Below are positions 31,054 through 64,000 of a stretch of DNA of 64,000 bases, piece by piece. The notes under the pieces were generated by a model. The model ran no database searches. It was not told the DNA's origin and saw nothing but the letters and a program-made list of their open reading frames with translations. Source of the stretch: Corythoichthys intestinalis (Eukaryota); assembly GCF_030265065.1 (NCBI RefSeq), contig NC_080410.1:29890661-29954660 (forward strand), written 5' to 3'. Made by a program: the position numbers and the translations under genes. Position 1 is the first letter of the stretch, and each line of letters starts with the position of its first letter.

Positions 31054-31289
31054 TTAGCTGCTCTTTAGCAGCGTCCTGTCATCAGGGGGACAGGAAGTGG
31101 TAGCAGCGAGAACGGCGGAGGAAGAGGAAGCGGACGAGCACGAAGACGACGATGAGGACGGCTGAGCGGGGAAGCTGAGAAGTTGTCCCGCTTCGGCGGG
31201 GAGGAGCGAGCACGAGCGAAGGTCCACGGTCTGCAGCGACGGACAACGGCGCAACAGCGGCACGCTCTGCTCTGTCACCTTGGTGCAAC
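31054..31289 (-). CDS. kdm2b: kdm2b-like terminal coding exon (CTKVTEQSVPLLRRCPSLQTVDLRSCSLLPAEAGQLL... Ser-rich tail ...LLKSS*)
   Basis: Acceptor gtatcag, phase matches. The LRR consensus continues. TAA at 31054-31056. Confidence 0.7.
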
Positions 31290-37396: not shown

Positions 37397-37634
37397 CTGC
37401 TAGGTTGAGGTGTGTGAGGGTGTGCCTGAGCGGCGAGGCAGGTGCGGCCAGTGTGGCAACGCTGTGATCCGACACGCTGGCGCAGTAGCTGAGATCCAGC
37501 TTGGCCAGGCGCGGCACGAAGCGCACCAGCAGACGCGACGCGGCGTCCGTCAGGTCCAACCCGGAGAGACGCAGCTCGGTCACGCCGTGGAAACGGCCGG
37601 CCCGCAACTCACCACCGCCGACGACTCCCTCGCG
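37397..37634 (-). CDS. kdm2b: kdm2b-like LRR exon ([80 protein letters not shown])
   Basis: Acceptor gtgcgcag, donor G|gtacgtatac. Matches KDM2B ...[34 protein letters not shown].... Confidence 0.8.
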
Positions 37635-37892
37635 CGCTGCGCACAGCAGGGGACAGAAATCATTCAAACATTAGCAATAATCCACGAGATCGAGAAATGA
37701 CTAACTGACTACAGTGATGAAAAAAGGAGCACTGTGAATTTGAATGAGTTTTTCACTAGTTGACATCCAATCTGATTCAAATGGATTGGACGTCTAGAGC
37801 TGTCAATGGCAGAAAATGAGTTAAGCAGTGTCTAACCAAGCCATGATAGCAAATTACCTTACGTTCCAGTGAGAAATAATGAGAATTTAGTA

Positions 37893-39249: not shown

Positions 39250-39411
39250 CGGTCCTGCTGTCAGGGGGCGGGGCCAGCAGCTCCCTCAAGTGAGCATCCT
39301 TCAAGTCGTCCACGCCGCTCAAATCCAACACACGCAAACATGGACACACTGTCTGACACAACGCGGAGACAGCGGGCCACGCAACGCCGGCCACCGTCAA
39401 CTCCACTAGGC
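39250..39411 (-). CDS. kdm2b: kdm2b-like LRR exon ([53 protein letters not shown])
   Basis: Acceptor tctttag, donor G|gtgagcttgac. Confidence 0.85.
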
Positions 39412-39532: not shown

Positions 39533-39696
39533 CAGGCAATCGGCTGAGGAGCCAAAGCAGCTGTTTCTTGGAGATGTTGGTGTATCCGAGGTCCAGCGAG
39601 ACGGGTTGCCTGCGAATGATGCCGCTGAGCATGGGTGGCGTGATGGAGCGCTGGCGGCTCAGGTCGATCTGACTCCACAGACGCTTGTCGCAACAC
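39533..39696 (-). CDS. kdm2b: kdm2b-like LRR exon ([54 protein letters not shown])
   Basis: Acceptor gtcacag, donor G|gtacacgac. Near-identical to the human KDM2B segment. Confidence 0.9.
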
Positions 39697-39829: not shown

Positions 39830-40911
39830 CATCGGCTCCAGGTGCGACACACGCGCATGCACAGGCACAACTCTCGCTGGCTGAGGAAAGTGAAGACGCG
39901 CAGCCACACATCGCGCGGCATGACGTGAGCGCGGCCTGAGTCCAGCGGAAGGCAGCTGGGTTCGGGGCAGGCAGGTGGCGGCCTCACCAGGTGGCGCTCC
40001 ATCTGGACGGGACGGGGTGGCGACGGCACGGCTGGAGGGCTACGCTTCATTACGTGCGAGCGCCCTGCCGCGCCGAGGCGAGACGACTGCGAGCACGGTG
40101 ACGCCGCGGTCACCGATACTAGCGGGCCGCCGCCTCGCCCGCCGTTGGGGGTGGGGATAGAGGTGGAGCAGTTCCTTGGACGACTTTTGTTGCCTTTGGC
40201 CACGCCCGCTCCCACCCCGCCGTGTCTGTGATTGGTCGGCGGACCACTGGCGTTCTCCTTTTCACCCCGCGTGCGGCCGTTGCGAGCCTCCTGCCCGTTG
40301 TTGCGCTGCGAGGACGGAGCCATCTGATTGGATGAGAGAGGCGACGGCGGCGGGAGGGAGGAGATTTTCCCCAGTCTGTCCGAAGGGGGCGGCTCGTCCT
40401 GGTCGGCGTCCGATGCGCCAGCTTTCCTCCCACGCTGCACCAGGGATCCTCCAGCGTCACTGTCCCCTCGCCGACGGGCCTTATCCCGTTCCTCCTCCCG
40501 CTCCTCGTCCTCACCTTCCGACTCTTCACTTGCGCTGAAGCCCAACTCCGCCAGGCGGCGGTCCCGCTCGCTGCGGAACCTCTCCGGGCGGCTTCCATTG
40601 CCGTGGGCGATGGGAGGGGGTGGCGGCGGCGAAGAGGGCGAGGACGCCCCTCCCCTGCGAAGGGAGTCATCCGAGTCGGACTCAGAGTCTGACTCCGAGC
40701 TGGATGACGAGGACGAAGACGAGTCAGGCCTGCGTTCCAGGAGACACATCCTCTTGAAGCGTTCCAGTTTTTCCCGATGACGTGAACGCTGGTCGGCGCC
40801 AGAAGCTCCGCCACCATCGGCTGGCGGCGTTGACGAGGACGCGGAGCCCTGAGGAGCCCCTCCCGCCGAGGGAATGGGGCCATTGGACTCGGCTCCTTCT
40901 TGTTTGGGCTT
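39830..40911 (-). CDS. kdm2b: kdm2b-like large exon: Ser/acidic/Pro-rich linker plus F-box (…[30 protein letters not shown])
   Basis: Acceptor ttttttag. 1082-nt open frame. F-box matches KDM2[32 protein letters not shown]. Donor TG|gtcagtcac. Confidence 0.85.
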
Positions 40912-40978: not shown

Positions 40979-41011
40979 CTTTTTGAGGCGTCTTTCATGT
41001 GCAGCCTTCAT
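40979..41011 (-). CDS. kdm2b: kdm2b-like 33-nt micro-exon (MKAAHERRLKK)
   Basis: Acceptor tttctttcag, donor AAG|gtacccg. In phase with neighbours. Confidence 0.5.
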
Positions 41012-42722: not shown

Positions 42723-42917
42723 CTTCTTTTTGGGGCCGCCGTCCTGTGGCTGCTCCTTCCTCCTCTTATGGGCACCGTCTGGCCTGGGCGCTACAGCCTC
42801 CTTCTTTGGAGGCGGTTCATCCGTCAGCTTCCAGCAACCCAGCTCCACGTTGTCTAGACGCCGCTTGGCCAAGATGTCTGCCTGCTCCTGCGGTCGCAGA
42901 GGGCAGCAAGTGGAGAA
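42723..42917 (-). CDS. kdm2b: kdm2b-like basic-region exon (FSTCCPLRPQEQADILAKRRLDNVELGCWKLTDEPPPKKEAVAPRPDGAHKRRKEQPQDGGPKKK)
   Basis: Acceptor ttgacag, donor AAG|gtcaggtgg. Phase-0 and consistent with flanking exons. Homology is weaker because the region is low-complexity. Confidence 0.6.
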
Positions 42918-43239
42918 CTGTCAATAATTATTCTTTATATTTATTCTATATACATGATATCTAAGGTCGCGCACTCAATACAGAATGTTACATTGAGAAC
43001 ACAAACGCCCCAAATGGAAAAGGAGATAAATGTATCGTTTTACTAGGCATGTGCCGGTATGCAATTCTGACGGTATGATAACCTTAACCAAAAATATCAC
43101 GGTTTCACGGTATTGCAATTACAGCTCTAAAATGTTTGAGATTTCTGGGTTCCAAAAAAAAAAAAAAAAAAAACTTTTTCCATTGAATAGGATTTTTATT
43201 TTTCAAAACTGTATAACATAATTAGCAAATTGGAATATA

Positions 43240-44869
43240 CAGTGCCTTGCAAAAGTATTCGGCCCCCTTGAACCTTGCAACCTTTCGCCACATTTCAGGC
43301 TTCAAACATAAAGATATCAAATTTTAATTTTTTGTCAAGAATCAACAACAAGTGGGACACAATCGTGAAGTGGAACAACATTTATTGGATAATTTAAACT
43401 TTTTTAACAAATAAAAAACTGAAAAGTGGGGCGTGCAATATTATTCGGCCCCCTTGCGTTAATACTTTGTAGCGCCACCTTTTGCTCCAATTACAGCTGC
43501 AAGTCGCTTAGGGTATGTTTCTATCAGTTTTGCACATCGAGAGACTGACATTCTGGCCCATTCTTCCTTGCAAAACAGCTCGAGCTCAGTGAGGTTGGAT
43601 GGAGAGTGTTTGTGAACAGCAGTCTTCAGCTCTTTCCACAGATTCTCGATTGGATTCAGGTCTGGACTTTGACTTGGCCATTCTAACACCTGGATACGTT
43701 TATTTTTCAACCATTCCATTGTAGATTTGGCTTTATGTTTTGGATCATTGTCCTGTTGGAAGATAAATCTCCGTCCCAGTCTCAGGTCTTGTGCAGATAC
43801 CAACAGGTTTTCTTCCAGAATGTTCCTGTATTTGGCTGCATCCATCTTCCCGTCAATTTTAACCATCTTCCCTGTCCCTGCTGAAGAAAAGCAGGCCCAA
43901 ACCATGATGCTGCCACCACCATGTTTGACAGTGGGGATGGTGTGTTCAGGGTGATGAGCTGTGTTGCTTTTACGCCAAACATATCGTTTTGCATTGTGGC
44001 CAAAAAGTTCAATTTTGGTTTCATCTGACCAGAGCACCTTCTTCCACATGTTTGGTGTGTCTCCCAGGTGGCTTGTGGCAAACTTTAAACGAGACTTTTT
44101 ATGGATATCTTTGAGAAATGGCTTTCTTCTTGCCACTCTTCCATAAAGGCCAGATTTGTGCAGTGTATGACTGATTGTTGTCCTATGGACAGACTCTCCC
44201 ACCTCAGCTGTAGATCTCTGCAGTTCATCCAGAGTGATCATGGGCCTCTTGGCTGCATCTCTGATCAGTTTTCTCCTTGTTTGAGAAGAAAGTTTGGAAG
44301 GACGGCCGGGTCTTGGTAGATTTGCAGTGGTCTGATGCTCCTTCCATTTCAATATGATGGCTTGCACAGTTCTCCTTGAGATGTTTAAAGCTTGGGAAAA
44401 CTTTTTCTATCCAAATCCGGCTTTAAACTTCTCCACAACAGTATCTCGGACCTGCCTGGTGTGTTCCTTGGTTTTCATAATGCTCTCTGCACTTTAAACA
44501 GAACCCTGAGACTATCACAGAGCAGGTGCATTTATACGGAGACTTGATTACACACAGATGAATTCTTTTTATCATCATCGGTCATTTAGGACAACATTGG
44601 ATCATTCAGAGATCCTCACTGAACTTCTGGAGTGAGTTTGCTGCACTGAAAGTAAAGGGGCCGAATAATATTGCACGCCCCACTTTTCAGTTTTTTATTT
44701 GTTAAAAAAGTTTAAATTATCCAATAAATGTTGTTCCACTTCACGATTGTGTCCCACTTGTTGTTGATTCTTGACAAAAAAATTAAATTTCATATCTTTA
44801 TGTTTGAAGCCTGAAATGTGGCGAAAGGTTGCAAGATTCAAGGGGGCCGAATACTTTTGCAAGGCACTG
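43240..44869 (-). mobile_element. Tc1-like DNA transposon (1630 bp, TA TSD, ~200-bp TIRs CAGTGCCTTGCAAAAGTATTCGGCCCCC...)
   Basis: Inverted ends at 43240-43450 and 44650-44869. Internal 302-aa transposase ORF at 43459-44367 carries D,D,E motifs (DNDPKH, SPDLNPIEN). Confidence 0.9.
43459..44367 (-). pseudogene. Tc1 transposase ORF, nearly intact. The N-terminal HTH segment (MKTKEHTRQVRDTVVEKFKAGFG*KK...) lies upstream but is separated by a single in-frame TAG.
   Basis: The six-frame ORF begins MQAIILKW.... Reverse-strand translation upstream recovers the conserved Tc1 N-terminus with one stop. Confidence 0.65.
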
Positions 44870-46510
44870 TACGCATAAAGGTAAATAAATAAAAAATAAT
44901 AAAAATAAATGAAATATTCTAAATAAAATAAAATTGCCATGATAATTAGCCCCTTTATTAAATAAATAAAAAAATAACAAAAAATAAATGAAATATTCTA
45001 AATAGAACTAAATTGGCATGCTAATTAGCCCCTTTATATACCTCGTTAACAAGCTTACGTTTCAGTATGTTTTACCAATGCTAGACACACTACAGATGCT
45101 GGAGTAAATGCTCGTAGCTAGTAGGAAACGTTCATGACAGCGTTACTAATTTTGTATAAATGCGAAATCATATTGGGAGATATTGCCTTCTCTGTTAGCC
45201 ACCCCGTGCAAACATGTTTTACATGTTGGTTGGCCCACCTAAGCCGCGGCCTTAAAGAGAATTATAATACTAAGGGGCTGTGTGATATCAATGGAACAGT
45301 TATGTGGCAAGATAATAAAGTTAAAAAAAAAATAAATCACACTCATGACCAATTATCGAAAATAAATAGAAAATTACGAACATTTACGAATGTAGCCCGG
45401 AAACAGCCAAATGGGGCTATGACGTCACAGCCAGGAAGCAAAAGGTCGAGGCAGATGCCATTGTTGTTTATCGACGAGAGAGTTGCGTTCGTTTTTTATC
45501 AAAAAAATCGCTAAAATGGTTCCAACCTGTCGTGCTATGTGGTGTACAAATAGCAATTTGTCGCAATGTAGAACCCATGAGTTCCCGAATGCGAGAAAAA
45601 GAGCTGGACTAAGCAGACAAAAGGTAAAGTTCGTCCGTGCTAAGAGGGCCAATTTTGCAGACCCAGCCTCCGGCACGGTTTTGTGTGGTGTAAATTTTAC
45701 ACCTGAAAGCTTTTCGAACTATGGACAAATTAAATCAGGTTTTGCTAAGAAATTGCTGCTGAAAGCAGATGCGGTGCCCACCATACACGCGCAGCCACCT
45801 AAATGTTCTGAGATATCAAGAAAGAGGACGATGACTGGCACTGATGATACCACCCCAGGCAAAGCAAATGAGTTGAGCAGCCAAGCTCGAAATGGCCAGA
45901 GTGAGTACTCTTTTATAATAAAAAACATATCATGCATTGGCTATAGGACTGGACACATGTATAAATTATCGCTCGTAAAATATATACAACAAATCCTTTA
46001 ATCCCATTCATATTTGTGTCTGTTGGCAGAGCGAAAACCTATGATAGCACAATAAATGATAATTATTCTATATATTACTTTATTTTGCGGTCACGGTGTA
46101 TCAGCTTCACAAAAAGAAATGCAAAACAAACCATTCGGTGTTTCCCACACGATCTGTTGCCGGTGTTTCATCAGTGTGATTGCTCCCCTCAATGATCCTT
46201 TCATTAGGCTGCATTGGCTTTCGTTTGGGCTCAAATTGATAACCCAAAACACCAAAGAAAGGTTCATAACTTTCCTTGTCACTATTAGAAGAACGTTCAT
46301 TACGTCGGATTCGTCGCTGCAAATAGAAACAAAATTGTCCGCCATCATCGCTGCCATTCAGTACTTTGTCAGGACCCAAGCACTGAGCGGGTGTTTCCTA
46401 GTTGTGACGTCACGCACACAATATGCTAGATTTCGGGGATCTCGGGCACCGGTCGTTTTAGCTTGACAATCGATCCAAATTTCTACCATTTTCTTGGTGT
46501 GTGTAATTAC

Positions 46511-50300: not shown

Positions 50301-50387
50301 CTTGCTGGTTTTTCCTTCCTTGTGACACTTGGGACACTCCCAGCAGTTGGGAATCTCGTCGTTGATGATGCCCTCCGCTTTGCCCAT
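50301..50387 (-). CDS. kdm2b: kdm2b-like exon ([29 protein letters not shown])
   Basis: Acceptor tctcgtag, donor AAG|gtgagtcc. Matches KDM2B ...[18 protein letters not shown]. Confidence 0.85.
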
Positions 50388-50468: not shown

Positions 50469-50612
50469 CTTGAGGCAGCGCGGGTGTATGATTTCGTTGC
50501 AGATGGTGCACTCCATCAGGCTCAGGCTGAACTTGTCCTCCTCGCCTTCCACAGTGTCCTCCTTTCCCGCCTCGCCGCACGCCAGGCACACCGCCGTGTG
50601 CGGCAGCACCGG
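50469..50612 (-). CDS. kdm2b: kdm2b-like PHD-finger exon ([48 protein letters not shown])
   Basis: Acceptor tgtgcag, donor AAG|gtgggg. Matches the KDM2B PHD region. Confidence 0.9.
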
Positions 50613-51078: not shown

Positions 51079-51255
51079 CGCTGTGCACTGCCTGAGCAGG
51101 CAGGACTGCTTCATGCGCCCGGGCCCTCCGAACTTCTTCATATCCTTGCAGAAGTGACACTCGCCGCACTCGCTACGGGTGCACGCCTGGCAGCGGCGGC
51201 ACCGCGTCCTCCTGCGCCTCGCCCCCCCGCCCAGCGCCTTACTGCCCGACATCCC
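51079..51255 (-). CDS. kdm2b: kdm2b-like CxxC zinc-finger exon ([59 protein letters not shown]); in-frame ATG at 51250-51252
   Basis: Near-identity with the KDM2B CxxC domain. Acceptor cgttag, donor GCG|gtaagacc. Confidence 0.85.
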
Positions 51256-51297
51256 CTAACGAGTCAGCTGCAAAAACAACAAGAACAACAACATTAA

Positions 51298-52619
51298 AGG
51301 GTATTATAATACTAAGGGGCTGTGAGAGATCAATAGAACAGTTATGTGGCAAGATAACAAATATTAACAAAGTTAACAAAAAAATAAATAACGTTCATCA
51401 GCAATTATCAAAAATAGATTGAAAATTACGAACATTTCCAAAAGTATTCCGGAAACAGCCGAATGGGGGGGGGGGGGGGGGGGGGGACGTCACAACAAGG
51501 AAACAAAAGGTCGAGGCAGGTGCCATCGTTGTTTATCGACGAGAGAGTTGCGTTCGTGTTTTATCAAAAAATTGCTAAAATGCTTCAAACTTGTCATGCT
51601 AAGTGGCGTACAAATAGCCATTTGTCGCAATGTAGTACCCAAGAGTTCCCGAACGTGAGAAAAAGAGCTGGACTACGCAGACAATGAGTAAAGTTCGTCC
51701 ATGCTAAGAGGGCTAATTTTCCAGACCCAGCCAACAGCACGGTTTTGTGTGGTACGCATTTTATACCTGACAGCTATTCGAACTATGGACAAATGAAATC
51801 AGGTTTTGCTAAGAAATTGCTGCTGAAATCCCGAGATATCCCTGATATCCTGAGATATCAAGAAAGAGGACGATGACTGGCTCTGATGAGACCACCCCAG
51901 GCAAAGCAAAGGAGGGAAATGACCAGAGTGAGTACTTTTATAATAAAAAACATATCACGCATTGGATATAGGACTGGATACATGTATAAATTATCGCTCG
52001 TAAAATATATACAACAAATCCTCTAATCCCATTCATAAATGTGTCTGTTGGCAGAGCGAAAACCTATGATAGCACGATAAATGATAATTATTCTATACAT
52101 TACTTTATTTTGCGGTCACGGTGTATCAGCTTCACAAAAAGAAATGCAAAACAAACCTTTCGGTGTTTCCCACACGACCTCTTGCCGGTGTTTCATCAGT
52201 ATAATTGCTCCCCTCAGTGATCGTTTCATTAGGCTGCATTGGCTTTCGTTTGGGCTCAAATTGATAACTCAAAACACAAAAGAAAGGTTCATAACTCTCC
52301 TTGTCACCATTAGAAGAACGTTCGTTACGCCAGATTCGTCGCTGCAACTAGAAACAAAATTGTCCACCATCATCGCCGCCATTCAGTACTAAGCACTGAG
52401 CTGATTGTTTGCTTGCTGTGACATCACGCACACAATATGCTAGATTTCCGGGATCTCGGGCGCCGGTCGTTTTAGCTTGACAATCGATCCAAATTTCTAT
52501 CATTTTCTTGGTGTTGCGATGTGTGTAATTACACGAAGTGGCATGATATGAATCCAAAAGGCATGCGTTGATGGATAAATGATGGAATATTAGCATTTCC
52601 CCAGGTGTTGTAATACCCT
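51298..52619 (+). mobile_element. TTAA-flanked THAP-carrying element, copy 2 (1322 bp, no nested insertion), 45 bp upstream of the kdm2b CxxC exon
   Basis: Same termini and internal sequence as copy 1. TTAA at 51294-51297 and 52620-52623. THAP-like ORF 51463-51687 is degenerate. A 23-nt G-run lies at 51464-51487. Confidence 0.7.
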
Positions 52620-53249
52620 TTAAGGTGACATATTTCACCTTTCCAGTCTTAGGTTTAACTCTTTACACAGCATTGACGATGATTGACATCAAATCATGTG
52701 ACTTCATCTTATGCTTTCAATTTAAATTTGCCACTAACAGACGTCAAATCCATTTGAACTGGGAAGGGTGGCCGCGAATGCCATCAAATCGATGGATCAA
52801 CATCTTCATGATATGCCATTTTGTGAAAAAGAATGCTTTTCATTCAAATGTTGAAAATATTTCAGCGACAAAAAAACGTCAAAAACATCGATAGCGTATT
52901 TCATTGTTTAGGCAAATATAACTCTTTGTATTGAATGTGTTATAAAACTGTTTTTTCCCCCATCAATTAATTCATTGATTGCACATTGACAGTGGTAGAT
53001 GTTAGATCCATTTGGATTGAATGGACTGCCATCTCCTCCCAATCCAAATAATTGGACGTCTATCGTCGTCAGTGTCACTTAATCATTTGCTACCACTGCC
53101 TGACTCGTATTTCAAAATAATTTGACGTCAAAGGCTGTGAAATGGTTCAAATAGCCTGTCGACACCACTGTTCCATGATGGGGGTGTCCTAGAAATATTA
53201 GCATTGAACTCTTCTGCTTGATGCTTTCGACTTGCGGTCATCGGGTCAC

Positions 53250-53900
53250 GTGATAAGTGGACATCACAAAGCATGCCGCTAGCAGAGGTCGCAAGCATCA
53301 AGAAGGCACCACTCGAACGACGCCAACAGCTAACACACGCACGCGCGCACACACCCCCACACCAAGCACCTCTGGAACATGAAAAGGGGAACATATGCTA
53401 ACATGCTAATGATGCTATCCCATAGCATCACTCCGGCTGCTCCCTGGAGATTGATAGGCGTCGCGCGCACACGCGCATGCAGGCAGGCAGGCGCGCGTCC
53501 GCCCGTTGTTGTCACCCACCTCTGGCTTTCAGCTCGCATGCTCGTGGCTCGCACATTAGCAACAATATTAGCCAGCCAGCTCTTAGCCACGTTAGCTCGT
53601 CGTCCGTCAGCTTCCTTGTTTGGAGCCGGAGAGCCTCCGCCGCCTCACGCGCACCCCATGCCGCCGTTAGCCTCCAGCTAGCTCCCGGCTAGCCCTGCGC
53701 AGCCGACGTGTTATCGATAAGCCAGCTAATCGATATCGACGAGGCGAGAGGCGCAGTGCCGATGCTGCTGCTACTAGTGCTGTGAGGCAAGCCCATTAAC
53801 CCTCATCCTCTCTCTCTCCTGTCCCTCCTCCTCATCCTCTCTCTCTACCTCCGCACGTGCCTGCTAGTAATAGTATCACTCCGCGCGTGGAAGTAGTCCC
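53250..53900. promoter_or_regulatory. CpG-rich island between the kdm2b CxxC exon and ube2m; candidate internal or bidirectional promoter
   Basis: High CpG density and GC boxes with no recognisable coding exon. A minus-strand GT donor follows an ATG at ~53590-53520. Confidence 0.35.
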
Positions 53901-54233
53901 ACCACTGCCGCACATGTTGTACTAGTCCTCAAAAAATTACTATATTGTGATATAGTTCATTATTTTCTGTAATGTACTGATAAACATTAGACTTTCATAT
54001 ATTTTAGATTCATTACACACAACTACACTCGACTGAAATAGTTCAAGCCTTTTATTGTTTTAATATTAATGATTTTGGCAAAAAAGTCATGAAAAACCAA
54101 AAATCCCAATCTCAAAAAATTTGCATATCATGAAAAATTCTAAAGAAGCTGCTAACCTAATCATCTGAAACAACGAATTACCTCAAAATAAAGATTCCTG
54201 AGGCTTTTAAAAACTCCCAGCCTGGTTCATTAC

Positions 54234-55228
54234 CAGTGTTGGGCACGTTAGTTTAAAAAAGTAATTAGTTACATTACTCACTACTTCTTCCAAAAAGTAA
54301 CTGAGTTAGTAACTGAATTACTCTATAGTAAAAGTAACTAGTTACCAGGGAAAGTAACTATTTCCGTTACTTTAAAAAGAACTTTTTGTATGTCAAAGAA
54401 TTTGAAATTTTCTGAGCAGTATTCGAGTCAGTGGAATAGAGAAGAACAGACAGGTAGTTAACTTGTTAGGTGCTTCAGCAGATTTGAATTGCTTACAACA
54501 GATGTCGACAAAAGCTTTGCCACGGGACATAAATTACACATTACATGCAGGTTCTTTCCTTTAATTTCGACAAACTTGAAATAGTGTCTATATCTCCACC
54601 TCTTAAAGGACAATTTTTCTTCTGAATGCTCTGCCATCCCGACCCTGTGCTTCTGTTTTGCGTGTGTGTGTTTGCCGCACGCGCTGTTCCGGTTTGCTTG
54701 TGAAATCACCGGCTCTGATTGGCTTACCACGACACCTCAGCCAATCACAATCAGTTCCATTGCATCTCTCGAGGGGCTGCATTCAGGTAGGCTCGTTTTC
54801 CGACAATTCACGTCACCTTCAAAGCGTCTGCCGTCCTCAAGATGGAAGCAGAATTATTGCTGGCTGACAGTGGGAGATGGGAACGAGGCTAGCATCAGGT
54901 GTAGCAAACACAGAAACGTTACCAAACTTTGGAAAGCATTGTCTAATTGAATGAGCAGGGACAAACAGCTTGGAGTCAGAAGTACGTGCGCTGTTCTCGA
55001 ACCTGAACGCACCCCAAGTTTTGGATGACAAATCAAGAGCAGAGTCGACTCGACACGGCTGGTAGTTTCTTCAATTTATTCAGAGTAAGTAACGCACCGC
55101 TTTTGACCGTCAGTAACGGTAACGGCGTTGTAACGGCGGAAAAAGTAATTAGTTAGATTACCCCGTTACTGAAAAAATAACGCCGTTACGTAATGGCGTT
55201 ATTTATAACGGCATTACTCCCAACACTG
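54234..55228. mobile_element. hAT-type MITE (TIR CAGTGTTGGG...CCCAACACTG, subterminal GTAAC(T/G)/GTTAC repeats) nested in the Tc1-like element, 8-bp TSD TTCATTAC
   Basis: Perfect 8-bp direct duplication at 54226-54233 and 55229-55236. Confidence 0.7.
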
Positions 55229-55250
55229 TTCATTACTCAAAACCGCAATC

Positions 55251-56027
55251 ATGGGCAAGACTGCTGACTTGAGTGCTGTCCAGAAGGTCATCATTGACAC
55301 CCTCAAGCAAGAGGCTAAGACACAGAAAGAAATTTCTGAGCGAATGGTCTGTTCCCAGAGTGCTGTATCAAGGCACCTCAACGGGAAGTCTGTGGGAAGG
55401 AAAAAGTGTGGCAGGAAACGCTGCAGAACCAGAAGAGGTGACCTCACCCTGAGAAAGATTGTGGAGAAGTGCCGATCCCAGACCTTGGGGGACCTGCAGA
55501 AACAGTGGACTGAGTCTGGAGTAGAAACATCCAGAGCCGCCGTGCACAGGTGTGTGCTGGAGCCACTTTTGAACCTGAAACAGCGGCAGAAGCGCCTGAC
55601 CTGGGCTACAGAGAAGCAGCACTGGACTGTTGCTCAGTCGTCCAAAATACTTTTTTCAGATGAAAGCAAATTTTGCGTGTCATTCGGAAATCAAGGTGCC
55701 AGAATTTGGAAGAAGACTGGTGAGAAGGAAATGCCGAAATGCCTGAAGTCCAGTGTCAAGTACTCAAATTCAGTGATGGTCTGGGGTGCCATATCAGCTG
55801 CTGGTGTTGGTCTACTGTGTTTTTTCAAGGGCAGGGTCAATGCAGCTAGCTATCAGATTTTGGAACACTTCATGCTTCCATCTGCTGAAAAGCTTTATGG
55901 AGATGAAGATTTCATTTTTCAGCACGGCCTGGCTCACAGTGTCAAAACCACTGGTAAATGGTTTACTGACCATGGCATTACTGTGCTCAAGTGTCCCGCC
56001 AACTCTCCTGACCTGAACCCCATAGAG
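55251..56027 (+). pseudogene. Tc1-like transposase remnant (MGKTADLSAVQKVIIDTLKQ...ANSPDLNPIEH), disrupted by MITE insertion at 56028
   Basis: Transposase homology. The reading frame runs into the inserted MITE. It resumes as NLGTKY* after the TSD. Confidence 0.6.
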
Positions 56028-56255
56028 CACAGGTGTCAAACCGATTCCAGAAAGGGCCGAGTGGGTGCTGGATTTTGTTCCAACCGATACAACGCAGAGA
56101 GTTTAATGAACTTCCTGCTGAAACAAGCAGCACCTGACAAAGTTTAACTGATTACACATGTAAAAGATCTAATTGGTGAAAAGGTGTCCTCTTCATTGGT
56201 TGGAAAGCAAACCTGCACCCACTTGGCCCTTTCTGGAATCGGTTTGACACCTGTG
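56028..56255. mobile_element. Palindromic MITE (CACAGGTGTCAAACCGATTCCAGAAAGGGCC...), 8-bp TSD CCATAGAG, inserted in the transposase ORF
   Basis: TSD at 56020-56027 and 56256-56263. A divergent family member is at ~6035-6262. Confidence 0.7.
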
Positions 56256-56778
56256 CCATAGAGAATCTGGGGACCAAGTATTGAGTGCATAGCTGATATA
56301 ATTAATCGAAGGTTGACATTTTTTTTGTATTGGTCGGATGAAATATGCTAATTTTTTTTTAGCTAGGGATTTTTGTTTTTTCTTGACTTTTTTGCCCAAA
56401 TCATCAATATAGCAACAATAAAAGGCTTGAACTACTTCAGTTGTGTTTAATGAATCTAAAATATGAAAGTCGAATGATTATCAGTACATTACAGAAAATA
56501 ATTAACTTTATCACAATATGCAATTTTTTTGAGAAGGACGAGTATGTTCTGTTTTTTAAAATGTTATTTATTAGGTTGTGTGCTCTGTTCGCATCAAGGA
56601 TGCGTGCGTTAATGACGTCACGCAGGTGACTGTGGGCAAAATTTAAAAAATGCTTGAAAATGGGCCAGAGAGCGCAGGCGTAGATGCGCATCAGGACCCT
56701 TGGCACAGCCCATATATGCCAAAAAGTGTATTTCTTCTGGGTTCCATTTTTGGCCATTTTGCTTCCCCTTTTTGGGGG

Positions 56779-56816
<38 letters not shown>

Positions 56817-57559
56817 CATTTTTGGGCCCGGGAGCGCCAGGAAACGTACAAATACGCATCAGGACTCCTGACACAGCCAGTGGCGCCTCCAGAAATTTTT
56901 CATAGGGGTGGCCTGATGGGGCCACTTAAAATCTTGGGGTGGCCAAAACTAAAAGCCATAATTTCAGGTTTTCATTATATTATTGCAGTAAAAAGGTCAG
57001 GGGAAAACTATCAGAAAGACTTAAGGACACGGCTACTGATATACTTTGGTGTATTGTGAAATATTTGATGTTACTAATGATTTAATGTGCATAGTCCATA
57101 ACTGTCCAGTCAACATTTTGAGTTCCACAACAATTCTGTTTTATTGTGTTATGTATATATTAGGCATAAGGTGTACATTTAAGTTAACAAAACAAAATAA
57201 ATGCATTCATTTGGGATGAAATGCATAACTGATGCTGCAACAATCTAATGATATACTGGCAAGCGGGGTGGCCAGTGGGGTGGCCAACCAATTTATAGGG
57301 GTGGCCGTGGCCACCCCTGGCCACCCCCTAGTGGCGCCATTGGACACAGCCCGAATTTCCCAAAACTGTGTACTTTACGATAAGACGTGACGAGCGTGAC
57401 GTATGAAAAGAAAAGGAATTGTGGGACTTGAAGTTTTCTTCTGAATGAAAAGATTCACTCCTTAAATTCAGGTAATTTCATTTGATGAAATGACCCCTGT
57501 GTGCCAAAATATTTCAATTTAAATCCAAAGTATTTTTAGGGGAATCACCCTTCTCTCTC

Positions 57560-57776
57560 GGTTCTCTCTCCCTGTCTAACAGTTAGCATGTAGCTAGTGA
57601 GTTAACATGCTAGGCTACGTTAGGCTAGCGGCGTGTCATTAGTTGACGTACGCCGGCGGCTCCTCCAGCAACATTTGGGTGCTGTGTCGGACGGAACACA
57701 CTCCCTAGCGAGCGAGGCAGCGACGCGGACTCGGCGAACACGGAGACGGCGTGCGCGTCTCATCCCGCCAGTGAAC
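57560..57776 (+). promoter_or_regulatory. ube2m: CpG-rich putative ube2m promoter/5'UTR
   Basis: CpG-dense block immediately upstream of the ube2m ATG. Confidence 0.45.
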
Positions 57777-57891
57777 ATGATTAAGCTCTTTTCCCTCAAG
57801 CAGCAGAAGAAAGACGAGGAATCTGCTGGAGGAAACAGAACCGGAGCCGGCGGAAAAAAAGCCAGCGCGGCCCAGCTGCGGATACAAAAAG
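57777..57891 (+). CDS. ube2m: ube2m exon 1 ([38 protein letters not shown] + G)
   Basis: ATG at 57777. The peptide equals the UBE2M/UBC12 N-terminus. Donor G|gttcgcc. Confidence 0.85.
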
Positions 57892-60800
57892 GTTCGCCCC
57901 TAACACTCAAAAACGTGTGGAAATATATGTCTAAATGTGCGTGTATGCGTACGTGTATGTCTGTAATTGACCAAACGCGCAAGGGAGAGCTCGTCAGTGC
58001 ACACAAGCCAAGAATAGATTCAGTTAGCAGTTAGCCAAACAGGCTAACTTGGAACGAGCCGACTCCGCCAAGATTGCTGCACTTGTGTGTTCATTCTACA
58101 CAAACACATAATATACACGCAACATGCCAACTCCGACATATTTGACGACTGCTTAGCAGCTAACAGCTCTCACTAGTGTGCTCTTTGCGTTAAACTGCTA
58201 GACAGCTCGAATTCACATGTGTTAGCATCCTGACGTCATGAGACCCGCAGGTGAGCAGGCCACACCTGGCAGGTTTTATGCGGCATTCGAGGAAGGTGGG
58301 AAATCTGAGTTATCCCACTTGGATAATACCAGTTTCGACCTTAAAGATGAAGTTAAGAATTTTTGACATCAGGCGTAATTTTTTAATTAGCCGGATTTTA
58401 ATTAGTCGGTAGAGTTGATTTCAACAAATTTCATGCAGTTAGTTAGTTATTTATTAGTTTTAGTGCTCCGGAATGGCTAAGCTGGCACAAATCAATCGCC
58501 AATAAAAAAACAACATATGCACTAGTGGTGTGCCAATACATCGATTATTAGATTCATCGAGATTCATCACGCGACGATTCGATTACGATTCATAAATAAT
58601 TTTATAAACGATGGTTTTCCCTAATAACTTAATGACAGCCGCTGCTAGCCGAACACAATTCAAGACACGTCTGCTCCCTGGACACCTTAAGGCAGTGTTT
58701 TTCAACCAGTGTGCCATGAGAGATCATCAGGCGTGCCGCGACAAATCATCCAATATCACTTTTTTTTTTTTAACATCGTTGGGCTGAGTTACAGACTGCA
58801 GTTGGAAGGAAGGAGTAGGAGAAGGTTGCGGTCGTGTGCAGATGAGCAAGGTATTGCTCGTGTCGCATTCAAAAATTGCTTGGATTTCTAGCCATCAGCC
58901 ATCTTGCTGTCAATGTGGACCCCAGCACGTCTACTGTACATAATTTGATTAGAATCGTCAAGTGTTGATATACTCGGAAATTTATTTTCCATTGTATCCA
59001 TATACAAGGACCATCAATCCCCCCCGTGTTTTAATCCAACACATTGTCGAGGACAGCAAGGCGGCTGATGGCTAGAAATCCGAGCAGTTCTTGAACGCGA
59101 CACGAGCAGCTACCAACAGCGCCATGGTGCCAAAGTTCATTTTTAAAAAAAACAAAACACCCATCGCTTCAAAACAGTTGATGGACTATTTTGTTCGCCT
59201 TTGTAAAAACGGAGAAACGGGCAACTTTTTTTCTTTACCTTTTTGCTGAACTTGTTGCGAAATCCAAAAAGTCCCACACTGCGGCAGAGACATTAATATT
59301 ACCTGCCTGCAAAGCCATTGTCAGCGACATGGTTGGCCCTGATGCGGTCAAAACATTGCTAAAGTCCCCTTGTCTGATAATTCTGAACTTTTCAAGCCTA
59401 ACTGCTATAAATAAAAATAAAAACGGAGAGCGACTGAGAGCTTTTGAAGATTGATGCCAGCATATTGGGTTTGTGTTCATCCAAACAGGCTCAAGTTTTG
59501 CACTGAGTAAGTACAAATATTGAGAAATTATTTTATGATTAAATATATTGTGCAGACAGTAATTTTGGAACATTTTTGGTTTGTGGTGTGCCACAAGCTT
59601 TTTTCAAATGTAAAAACATACCGTAATGCAGAACAGGTTGAAAAACACTGCCTTAAGAGATGCACAAGGTGAGGATGGCGGCAGCTGAAGTTACTGAGTG
59701 AGAGATTTACTCCTGTACAAAAGATTCAAAAATACATTTGTGTATGAGACAGGCAAGCGGTGGTCGCGCTTTAGGTCCTCTTCTGTGCGCAAGTTATTTT
59801 TTAGAGCAAGAGGGGAAGAGAGAGAGTTCACTGCTCCTTGCCTTTCAGTTGTCCAGCAGTAGTTTCAAGTCATGTTAATTGAAACAATGTTGTGAGTAGG
59901 CATGTGCCGGTATGAGATTTTGACGGTACGATAACCGTGAGCAAAAATACTGCGGTTTCACAGTATCACGGTATTGCAATTATAGCTCCAAAATTTTGAG
60001 ATGTATGGGTAAAAAAAAAAACTTTTTTCAATTGAACAGGATTTTTTTTTTTTCCAGAACATAGTTGCAAATTGGAACATGAATATATTGTTAATTGTTA
60101 ATTATCAATAAAAAAACCCAGATATTTTAATTAAAATATAACTTATAGACTATACCCACAGCCACAGCTCAAGTTGCTCAAGATTAGAGCAAGAGCAAAA
60201 TAATTTGTAGAAAAAAATAAAAACACTTCTGAATAATTTTTTTTTTAATTGAGGGTGGAAAAGCTCAAGTGAAGTTTTGCCAATTTCAGCCATTGTGTCA
60301 AATCTAGTCTACATGATGTCATGCCTTTGTGTTAAAAAGAACATAAAGAATTCATAAATTAATAAGTTAGTTAAAAATGTACAAGTTAGTTAAAATGTAA
60401 ATATTGTTGTGGAAAGGTTTCATCTGAAAAAAAAAAAAAAACATTGGAAGTGAGACCTCTCCTTGCGCTAACGAACGTGGATTTGTGCTTAGGGCAAGAT
60501 CATCTTTTGCAATTAACGATCTTTGATGCTATCCTTTTTTCCCCCTTCATTCAAGCGAATCAAGCTTGTTTTTTCACTCTGCGGCTGTAACACTCGACGA
60601 AGTTGCTCTCCCAGCTAAGCTTAGGCTAACATTCATCTTTGTAAGCTTTTAGTTAGTTTTCGAATTTGAAAGGAAAATGTGTGTTTTGTTTTTGGCGAAC
60701 TTTTCCATGGTGCTAATCTGTTGAAGCTACTCACACATGGAAAAATACAATTGTACAACATTTTAAATGTATTCATTTTGTATATTACCCTTACCACGAT

Positions 60801-62912
60801 TTGAGAGCTCAATAAATTGAAGAAAAGAACGCCTTATGTTTGGAGTATTTGTTTTTGTGTTCGCTGGCTGGCTAGCCGATAGCATCACTTTCACACACAG
60901 AAACAAACGGTAGGGGGTGAGCGCTGCCGCGCCATGCCACTTCTGGCTGCATTTTTGAGACATGAAAAATGGCGAATACCGTACTACGGTCTGACGGAAA
61001 ATTTTAGTGGTTTTGAAACCGCGACGTTTTCACACCACGGTAAACCGTGAAACCGGTAACCGGCACATGCCTAGTCCTGAGTGTGTTGTTAAGTCCCGTG
61101 TGCGTCTATTAGAGGTGAGTACACGAACCCTCTTGTACTGTTTAGCCTTTATTGTTGTTGTTTTTGAGATGTTAACAGTTAGTGCTAAGCTAAATAGGGA
61201 ATTCGCTAACGTGTATTTCCATGTCTATTTGTGCGTTATTAGTGTACAAAAGCATACTAAATAATACATATGCAGAACATGTAAAACCAGGATCAAGTAC
61301 AGCGGTAACACTACAAACATGCGAAATAATACAGAAATCTGTGAAAACAAAGTATATTGGTTAAAAGAAGTCTTATTTCTAAAGGCACTTTGGTTTTTTT
61401 CCAGAAAATGTGGAATTCATTCCACCACTGTAAATTTTATTGTATTGTTGGGAGAAATAAGTACTCCCTTTGAAACAGCTGCGCCTTCTTGTGAAAAAGA
61501 GCAGCTTAAGTTCAGCTTTTTGTTGTATAGGCATGTTTCCATTGTTCCTGCTGGATCATTAGTATGAAGTAGCCACAAAGTAAGAGAAAAGAGGTAGGGG
61601 CGTAAAGAAATCCTGATCATTGTTAATACCGTGAAGATAATTCAATAATCATTCAAGTTCAATAATCGAATCGTAGTACCCTGAATCGTAATTTAGTCCA
61701 ATCGTGGGGTGCCTTAGATGGCACACCCCTAATATGCACGCATGAAAATCACCGATGACCCATGCAATCAATAGTGTTGGCTATATTTTCAGGATGAAGT
61801 TATTAAAACTTACCATTGCATGTCAATAACTGTAGTATGAACAGCAACATTTGTAATCCAGCTGCTCTGTAGGCAACATGCTGCAGAGTGGATAATTTTT
61901 CCACCGGTGTGTTTATATCGTGGCCAGCAGCAAGTATCCAAAGTTTGTATTGTTCCTCGTTCTTCATAGGGAATTTGTGGAAACTCTCATTTGCCCATTT
62001 CTTCTGTCTGTTTCCACAGCCTCTAAATGCATGTTTCACTATGTTGCCGTTCTTCATTCAAGACTCCTTAGACTGATGCTGCATTCGAGGAAGGTGGGGA
62101 GTCCGAGTTTCCAACCTCCGACCAGAAAAAAATAACATTGGAACGCCACTCGAACTGGGAGGCACTAGTCGCCAAGTCAGGAAAAAAAAACAAAAACAAG
62201 TTGCTTCAATCAGACGTCACTCAATAAAATGCGGTGCCCGTCGAAAAGCAGACCGTCAATAGAAAAACTAAAGAAGGCAGTATACAATGTGGTCTATTTA
62301 GAGTTTTCCTCCAGTATTTGATCACTTATGAGAAGGCAGGTTTGCTGGAGGTCAACATGTCTTTTGATGTCCAAAATAAAAAACGATTGGAACACTTTGA
62401 GGTCACAACTGGTACCATCCGAGTGGGATAAGTCCAACTACCCATCTTCCTCGAATGCAGCATGAGCACAAGTTGCCGTAGCACTCCTCTCTATGGGGGT
62501 CTCATTACGCATCTAAAAAATAGTCTCGCAGAAATAAATGAATTACGGCAATTTGGTGTGACATTGTTTTTGGCTGTATGTGTATTTTGAACAAACGATG
62601 TGCATTTTGAATTTTTTTGACTATATTCGATCTGTTAATATCATTTTATTGGGATGCTAGGAAGGGACCATTCACTCACGCCGGGTACCCCCCCCGACTT
62701 TGCGACTAGGACCTCCAAATTCGAGTGGCATTCCAATGATATTTTTTCTAGTTGGAGGTTGGAAAACTCCCGACTTCCCACCTTCCTTAAATGCAGCATT
62801 CGAGTCCAAATGAAATAACGTCCTGTGTTGAAAACCCCCGAAACAACCGATGATGGCATGCGAGTTTCAGACAACGAAATCTAAAGGGTTTATTTGGGAT
62901 TGTATGTTTCAG

Positions 62913-63007
62913 ACATCAATGAGTTGAACCTGCCAAAGACATGTGAGATCAACTTCCCTGACGACGACGACCTCCTCAACTTCAGACTCATCATCTCGCC
63001 TGATGAG
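62913..63007 (+). CDS. ube2m: ube2m exon 2 ([32 protein letters not shown])
   Basis: Acceptor tgtttcag, donor GAG|gtgcgtgc. Matches UBE2M residues ~37-68. Confidence 0.85.
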
Positions 63008-63144
63008 GTGCGTGCATTTATATTTGCGTGAGTCACAAGTAAGGTTGCCGTAAATGATTACTTTAATAGGTGACTAATCAGAAGGATTAGCGATCACATA
63101 GCAAGAAGTAGGATGTTGAGCTCACTTACTACATATTACGAATA

Positions 63145-63589
63145 GGGTTGTTCCGATCATGTTTTTTTTTTGCATCGATCGTTTTAGTTTGAGTATCTGC
63201 CGATCCCGATATTTCCCGATCCGATTGCTTTTTTTTTTTTTTGCTCCCGATTCAATTCCAATCATTCCCGATAATTTTTCCCGATCATATACATTTTGGC
63301 AATGCATTAAGAAAAAAATGAATAAAACTCGGACGAATATATACATTCAGCATACAGTACATAAGTACTGTATTTGTTTATTATGACAATAAATCCTCAA
63401 GATGGCATTTACATTATTAACATTCTTTCTGTGAGAGGGATCCACAGATCGAAAGATTTGTGATTTTGTATATTGTGACTAAATATTGTAGTGTATTTGT
63501 TGAGCTTTCGGTAAATGATACTGCAGCCATTCAACCCAAATGCATGATGGGAAGTGGAACCATGACTGTGCGTTGTGCTACCAATTGAT
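63145..63589. repeat. Same repeat family, copy B, truncated by a Tc1 insertion at 63590
   Basis: Aligns with 4354-4830. Confidence 0.6.
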
Positions 63590-64000
63590 ACAGTGCCTTG
63601 CAAAAGTATTCGGCCCCCTTGAACCTTGCAACCTTTCGCCACATTTCAGGCTTCAAACATAAAGATATAAAATTTTAATTTTTTGTCAAGAATCAACAAC
63701 AAGTGGGACACAATCGTGAAGTGGAACAAAATTTATTGGATAATTTAAACTTTTTAAAATAAAAAACTGAAAAGTGAGGCGTGCAATCTTATTCGGCCCC
63801 CTTGCGTTAATACTTTGTAGCGCCACCTTTTGCTCCAATTACAGCTGCAAGTCGCTTGGGGTATGTTTCTATCAGTTTTGCACATCGAGAGACTGACATT
63901 CTTGCCCATTCTTCCTTGCAAAACAGCTCGAGCTCAGTGAGGCTGGATGGAGAGTGTTTGTGAACAGCAGTCTTCAGCTCTTTCCACAGATTCTCGATTG
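63590..64000 (+). mobile_element. 5' part of a second copy of the same Tc1-like family (continues past window end)
   Basis: Identical left-TIR sequence preceded by a TA. Confidence 0.85.

Follow-up and report, generated by a model that had tools for sequence, protein, structure and literature searches.

Vertebrates have two paralogues of KDM2A, namely KDM2B and FBXL19, the second of which is without a JmjC domain (PMC5997449, PMC7000146). Mouse FBXL19 binds unmethylated CpG DNA by way of its CxxC-PHD module and associates with SKP1 and with CDK-Mediator, the Mediator form containing cyclin-dependent kinase (PMC5997449, PMC5499583). It brings CDK-Mediator and RNF20 to CpG islands, and it is a substrate receptor of SKP1-cullin-F-box (SCF) complexes (PMC5997449, PMC5499583, PMC7000146). 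Mammalian KDM2A and KDM2B also make JmjC-less short isoforms, which start at promoters within internal CpG islands, upstream of the CxxC exon (PMC7000146). Here we analyze a 64,000-nucleotide stretch from Corythoichthys intestinalis (NC_080410.1, positions 29,890,661 to 29,954,660; the whole stretch is called the window), which holds a minus-strand gene with CxxC, PHD, F-box and leucine-rich repeat (LRR) coding sequence. A first-pass annotation had labeled this gene kdm2b and, on that premise, expected further exons encoding JmjC upstream of the CxxC exon. Our analysis indicates that the gene is almost certainly a complete, ordinary fbxl19 and not kdm2b, with no exons missing. Since the kdm2b label is wrong, the expectation of upstream JmjC exons falls with it. 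The absence of JmjC is a defining feature of FBXL19 and is therefore no anomaly at this locus. That FBXL19 is a JmjC-less third paralogue of the KDM2 family is already known, as is the arrangement of the locus. What is added here is only mildly new: a possible conserved short upstream open reading frame (uORF) in the fbxl19 leader and a transposon-driven expansion relative to the pipefish Stigmatopora argus.

Identity and completeness of the minus-strand gene

A homologue search with the window protein over ~5.8 billion proteins returned 1027 matches. The best 120 of these were all teleost F-box/LRR-repeat protein 19 (or carried the zebrafish synonym zgc:158376); they were ~800–900 aa in length and none had a JmjC Pfam domain. 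The top match among those listed was from S. argus, followed by Phyllopteryx, Syngnathus and Hippocampus at 80–84% (Syngnathidae). Aligned with the annotated FBXL19 of S. argus, the window protein was 95% identical from end to end, with only small insertions and deletions in low-complexity stretches. This end-to-end match indicates that the gene model described below is both correct and complete.

The model was built by following canonical AG/GT splice sites on the minus strand. Ten coding exons, with AG/GT at every junction, join into an uninterrupted open reading frame of 828 aa running from 51252 to 31054. The first coding exon (51079–51252), predicted to be the second exon of the transcript, begins with the ATG at 51252–51250 and encodes the zf-CXXC domain. 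The first part of the PHD domain is encoded by coding exon 2 (50469–50612, bounded by AG/GT splice sites) and its second part by coding exon 3 (50301–50387). These are followed by coding exon 4 (42723–42887), by a 33-nt coding exon 5 (40979–41011, MKAAHERRLKK) and by coding exon 6 (39830–40911), which holds a low-complexity linker and the F-box. LRR sequence is encoded by coding exons 7 (39533–39696), 8 (39250–39411) and 9 (37397–37636), and the last coding exon, 10, spans 31054–31289 and ends in the stop codon TAA at 31056–31054. The first-pass annotation had the open frame of the CxxC exon beginning at 51255 and the coding sequence stopping at 31054. Both positions were re-read and are right, the frame with the CxxC motif extending from 51255 down to 51046.

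Pfam domains in the 828-aa protein were zf-CXXC at residues 12–56 (E = 7e-14), PHD_4 at 61–128 (7e-26), F-box-like at 532–574 (3e-9) and LRR_4 at 743–777. This order, zf-CXXC, PHD, F-box, then LRR, is that of FBXL19. A JmjC domain was not matched in the protein by Pfam.

The paralogues were compared in an identity table and a tree, both confined to the CxxC-PHD module and made without a full-length fish Kdm2b. A search with the human KDM2B CxxC-PHD module gave only fragments of 65–203 aa, some of which were put into the tree. Against PDB sequences, the window module scored 246.5 bits with human FBXL19 (6asb), 223.1 bits with KDM2B (4o64) and 160–170 bits with several KDM2A entries. The corresponding alignment gave 88% identity to human FBXL19, 81% to human KDM2B and 56–66% to KDM2A sequences. 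At all of the diagnostic positions of the module the window protein has the FBXL19 state, and in a neighbor-joining tree it groups with human and shark FBXL19. A KDM2B-like CxxC-PHD fragment from Caranx was 94% identical to human KDM2B. These comparisons place the window protein with FBXL19, in agreement with the database matches, and the kdm2b label does not survive them.

The 5' end of fbxl19

An in-frame TAG (51258–51256) lies one codon upstream of the ATG in the CxxC exon. Just upstream of the TAG are a polypyrimidine tract and the acceptor ttgtttttgcag (cag at 51270–51268), so that the CxxC exon starts at 51267. Because of the TAG, sequence joined in front of this exon by splicing adds no codons, at least in the CxxC frame. 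One option in the first-pass annotation was a kdm2b gene whose JmjC exons lie past 64 kb, so that ube2m would sit antisense within a single long intron of that gene. A stop codon between acceptor and ATG argues against such exons being read into the CxxC frame. The TAG is specific to the Corythoichthys window; S. argus has TGG in its place (gttgggggATG, as compared to gttaggggATG), and in tilapia, Astyanax and Amia the stretch from the acceptor to the ATG of the fbxl19 CxxC exon is free of stops. The orthologues in S. argus, tilapia, Astyanax and Amia are annotated as starting with the same N-terminus as the window protein. Together with this N-terminus, an acceptor 15–20 nt upstream of the ATG has been kept from Amia to percomorphs.

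A CpG island is present at ~53.2–53.9 kb, with a GC content of 0.54–0.62 and an observed/expected CpG ratio of 0.93–1.05. It falls within a block (52945–53903, minus strand) that is 87% identical to S. argus and that would contain the fbxl19 promoter and a non-coding exon 1. Within the island, the motif GAGCATGCGAGCTGA is followed by a splice donor, AG/GTGGGT, where the slash marks the exon end at 53520 and the GT occupies 53519–53518. Motif and donor are both kept in S. argus and tilapia. The motif is present in Amia with three mismatches, and the donor context there is AAG/GTTAGT. From this conservation we infer that fbxl19 has a non-coding exon 1 ending at 53520, at this donor, and that the promoter lies just upstream. 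Transcription would most likely start in the conserved island, at ~53.5–53.9 kb. The short exon 1 would then be spliced from its donor at 53520 to the acceptor of the CxxC exon at 51268, and translation would begin at 51252. A conserved exon 1 and donor on the fbxl19 side of ube2m fit poorly with a kdm2b transcript that starts beyond 64 kb and passes through ube2m.

The putative exon 1 has a conserved upstream ATG. In the window this predicted uORF is read from 53539–53520 joined to 51267–51264 on the minus strand; the corresponding positions are ~9079 in the S. argus locus (L001), ~7075 in the tilapia locus (L002) and ~6976 in the Amia locus (L004). The predicted uORF has 6–7 codons and extends across the junction of exons 1 and 2, with the products MRAESQS in the window, MRADSES in tilapia and MRHETS in Amia, each followed by a stop. 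The TGA that ends it corresponds to positions 2–4 of exon 2 and was seen in 5 of the 5 species examined.

JmjC sequence, neighboring genes and transposon insertions

A 521-aa N-terminal sequence of KDM2A served as the probe for JmjC exons. It was first validated, scoring 1232 bits against the KDM2A chain 7uv9_K and matching JmjC and JHD in Pfam. A permissive tblastn search of both strands of the whole 64 kb, the 51.3–57.5 kb interval included, gave chance-level matches only (best E = 0.83), and none of these covered the conserved JmjC motifs. When the probe was used on four related loci, each with 10 kb upstream of fbxl19, nothing was found at E ≤ 1. The earlier statement that the window holds no JmjC exons was therefore correct, as was the description of the 51.3–57.5 kb interval as containing transposable elements and a CpG island, both of which were found.

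Upstream of fbxl19 lies ube2m, on the plus strand, with its ATG at 57777, as the first-pass annotation had it. Coding exon 1 (57777–57891) ends in ...RIQK and coding exon 2 spans 62913–63007; the remaining exons, and with them the catalytic core, lie beyond 64000. The 70 aa encoded by exons 1 and 2, comprising the N-terminal extension and the start of the UBC core, matched human Ubc12/UBE2M (4p5o_I) at E = 1.4e-29, and UBE2F scored far below UBE2M. The upstream region and 5' leader of ube2m (57375–57776, plus strand) are conserved with S. argus, and the gene has its own CpG island at ~57.6–58.0 kb. In S. argus, a 185-aa UQ_con gene is located 1.8 kb upstream of fbxl19 in divergent orientation, with a TRIM gene beyond it and an importin-beta gene (IBN_N/HEAT, 876 aa) downstream of fbxl19. 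Tilapia has the same order of UQ_con gene, fbxl19 and importin-beta, and its UQ_con gene is likewise divergent and 185 aa long. The positions of the ube2m ATG and of the end of fbxl19 exon 1 are 57777 and 53520 in the window, 8171 and ~9095 in S. argus, and 2576 and ~7090 in tilapia. Throughout the window, blastn blocks are collinear with the S. argus locus. Exon-sized blocks at ~2086–28114 (minus strand) show 73–91% nucleotide identity to the S. argus importin-beta gene, so the window takes in importin-beta and fbxl19 as well as the beginning of ube2m. The ube2m and fbxl19 genes form a standard divergent (head-to-head) pair, an arrangement conserved in pipefish and tilapia.

In Astyanax, the 10 kb upstream of fbxl19 contained no gene, and in Amia the upstream gene is an Orai gene. 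Human FBXL19 presumably adjoins ORAI3. The absence of ube2m next to fbxl19 in Astyanax and Amia suggests that their adjacency is probably a percomorph rearrangement without functional meaning. The product of ube2m is the NEDD8 E2 (Ubc12) that activates cullin-1, and that of fbxl19 is an F-box receptor of SCF complexes. It is conceivable, though we consider it doubtful, that the two genes form a co-regulated unit of NEDD8 E2 and SCF receptor and that the conserved uORF in the fbxl19 leader controls translation. The CpG islands of the two genes are separate and ~4 kb apart in the window. In S. argus the islands are separated by less than 1 kb, as are the ube2m ATG and the fbxl19 leader exon, and they amount in effect to a bidirectional promoter region.

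Several points weigh against reading the gene as a complete fbxl19. The window ends inside ube2m, and the sequence past 64 kb is unseen. The exon 1 of fbxl19 and its transcription start are placed from conservation only. Partial gene models from Terrapene, Lepisosteus and Goodea took odd positions in the small tree, and their C-terminal tails are non-homologous. The F-box/LRR half of the protein finds its best PDB match in KDM2B, at 302 bits. This last match arises because the F-box/LRR of FBXL19 is without a solved structure, and it shows only that the paralogues are close. The strong similarity of both halves to KDM2B (223 and 302 bits) and the unseen sequence are what the nested kdm2b arrangement has in its favor. 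However, the best 120 matches are FBXL19, the diagnostic residues and the tree agree with them, S. argus has a TRIM gene beyond ube2m, and at none of the four related loci did the 10 kb upstream of fbxl19 match the JmjC probe. Taken with the TAG, the orthologue starts and the conserved exon 1, these results leave the nested arrangement a negligible chance of being correct.

The JmjC-less gene might instead be a lineage-specific kdm2b duplicate that lost its JmjC exons, or a kdm2b locus expressed solely from the internal promoter of the short isoform KDM2B-SF. The mammalian short-isoform layout, with a CpG-island promoter upstream of the CxxC exon, superficially resembles the locus described here. 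However, this JmjC-less gene, annotated as FBXL19 and sharing its N-terminus, occurs across the range from bowfin (Amia) to teleosts, and in Amia it adjoins an Orai gene. The Caranx KDM2B-like module is 94% identical to human KDM2B, whereas the window protein reaches only 81%; JmjC remnants were not found by tblastn in the 64-kb window. We regard either form of this explanation as very improbable. The model with the internal KDM2B-SF promoter was rejected on orthology and synteny. The other option of the first-pass annotation, a paralogue encoding only the CxxC-PHD-F-box-LRR form, was right as to architecture. This form is not a peculiarity of one kdm2b copy but that of fbxl19, which is JmjC-less in all vertebrates (PMC5997449, PMC7000146). 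The consequence is for annotation only: the gene should be labeled fbxl19, and neither missing JmjC exons nor a nested ube2m need be looked for. More generally, reading domain motifs alone can make a close paralogue look like a truncated gene.

Five blastn blocks align the S. argus fbxl19-ube2m intergenic region (~1.8 kb) with the window in collinear order. From ube2m towards fbxl19 these are ube2m exon 1 with its upstream sequence (58200–57375, 83% identity), a short conserved block (56637–56586, 85%), the block holding the CpG island (53903–52945, 87%), a second short block (52779–52648, 71%) and the CxxC exon (51296–51000, 92%). Two of the gaps between blocks are explained by insertions, a 1.2-kb repeat and a 2.6-kb Tc1/mariner element. 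The repeat (51294–52514), in fbxl19 intron 1, is interspersed, with an 85% copy at 45252–46500 in intron 3; blastn did not find it in the S. argus intergenic region. The Tc1/mariner transposon (53931–56529, plus strand) has inverted ends of ~200 bp (53931–54128 and 56343–56529) and a degraded DDE_3 transposase frame at 55251–56147, and it accounts for the space between two blocks that lie next to each other in S. argus. These two insertions stretched the ube2m-fbxl19 intergenic region from less than 2 kb to ~6.5 kb, and the Tc1 insertion accounts for the ~4 kb spacing of the CpG islands.

Expansion relative to S. argus is seen elsewhere in the locus as well. The coding region of fbxl19 spans 20 kb as compared to 4.2 kb in S. 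argus, owing to transposon-rich introns, and ube2m intron 1 (57892–62912) is 5.0 kb in the window and ~118 bp in S. argus. Collinearity is kept in the exons and in the conserved non-coding blocks, and the extra DNA is largely interspersed repeats. A second Tc1/mariner element, in fbxl19 intron 3 (43237–44871), has an uninterrupted transposase frame of 315 aa at 43462–44406 (HTH_Tnp_Tc3_2, DDE_3). A partial Tc1 copy in ube2m intron 2 (63588–64000), ending at the window edge, is 97% identical to 43237–43652, which suggests recent transposition in this genome. In ube2m intron 1, inverted repeat pairs of 57–108 bp with 81–89% identity were found at 58278–58346/62395–62463, 62076–62181/62693–62799 and 58855–58911/59052–59108. 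These are probably small elements resembling miniature inverted-repeat transposable elements.

Comparison with KDM2A, KDM2B and FBXL19

The window protein is homologous to the C-terminal CxxC-PHD-F-box-LRR half of KDM2A (FBXL11/JHDM1A). KDM2A differs from it in having JmjC, which the window gene lacks, and in the CxxC-PHD module, where identity is 56–66%.

KDM2B (FBXL10/JHDM1B) is closer, with a homologous CxxC-PHD module (81% identity) and F-box/LRR half (302 bits). However, the KDM2B gene also includes JmjC exons and codes for a long N-terminal region, neither of which is present in the window gene. The diagnostic residues of KDM2B are CRKCEAC, SCIMRQCIA, NLMLMECS and GVVNDELP, and from these the window protein differs, for example in having GIINDEIP for GVVNDELP. 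The neighborhood differs as well, the window gene being located in the genomic context of fbxl19. The short isoform KDM2B-SF has the same JmjC-less architecture as the window protein.

It is FBXL19 that agrees with the window protein throughout. Both have the same domain order, are without JmjC and start ~10 residues before the CxxC domain. With a CxxC-PHD module 88% identical to that of human FBXL19 (6asb), the window protein would be expected, by homology, to bind CpG islands and to act in SCF complexes. The fbxl19 genes of S. argus and tilapia have the same neighbors as the window gene. Nothing essential in the window gene departs from FBXL19; its central low-complexity linker differs in length, a feature that also varies from fish to fish.

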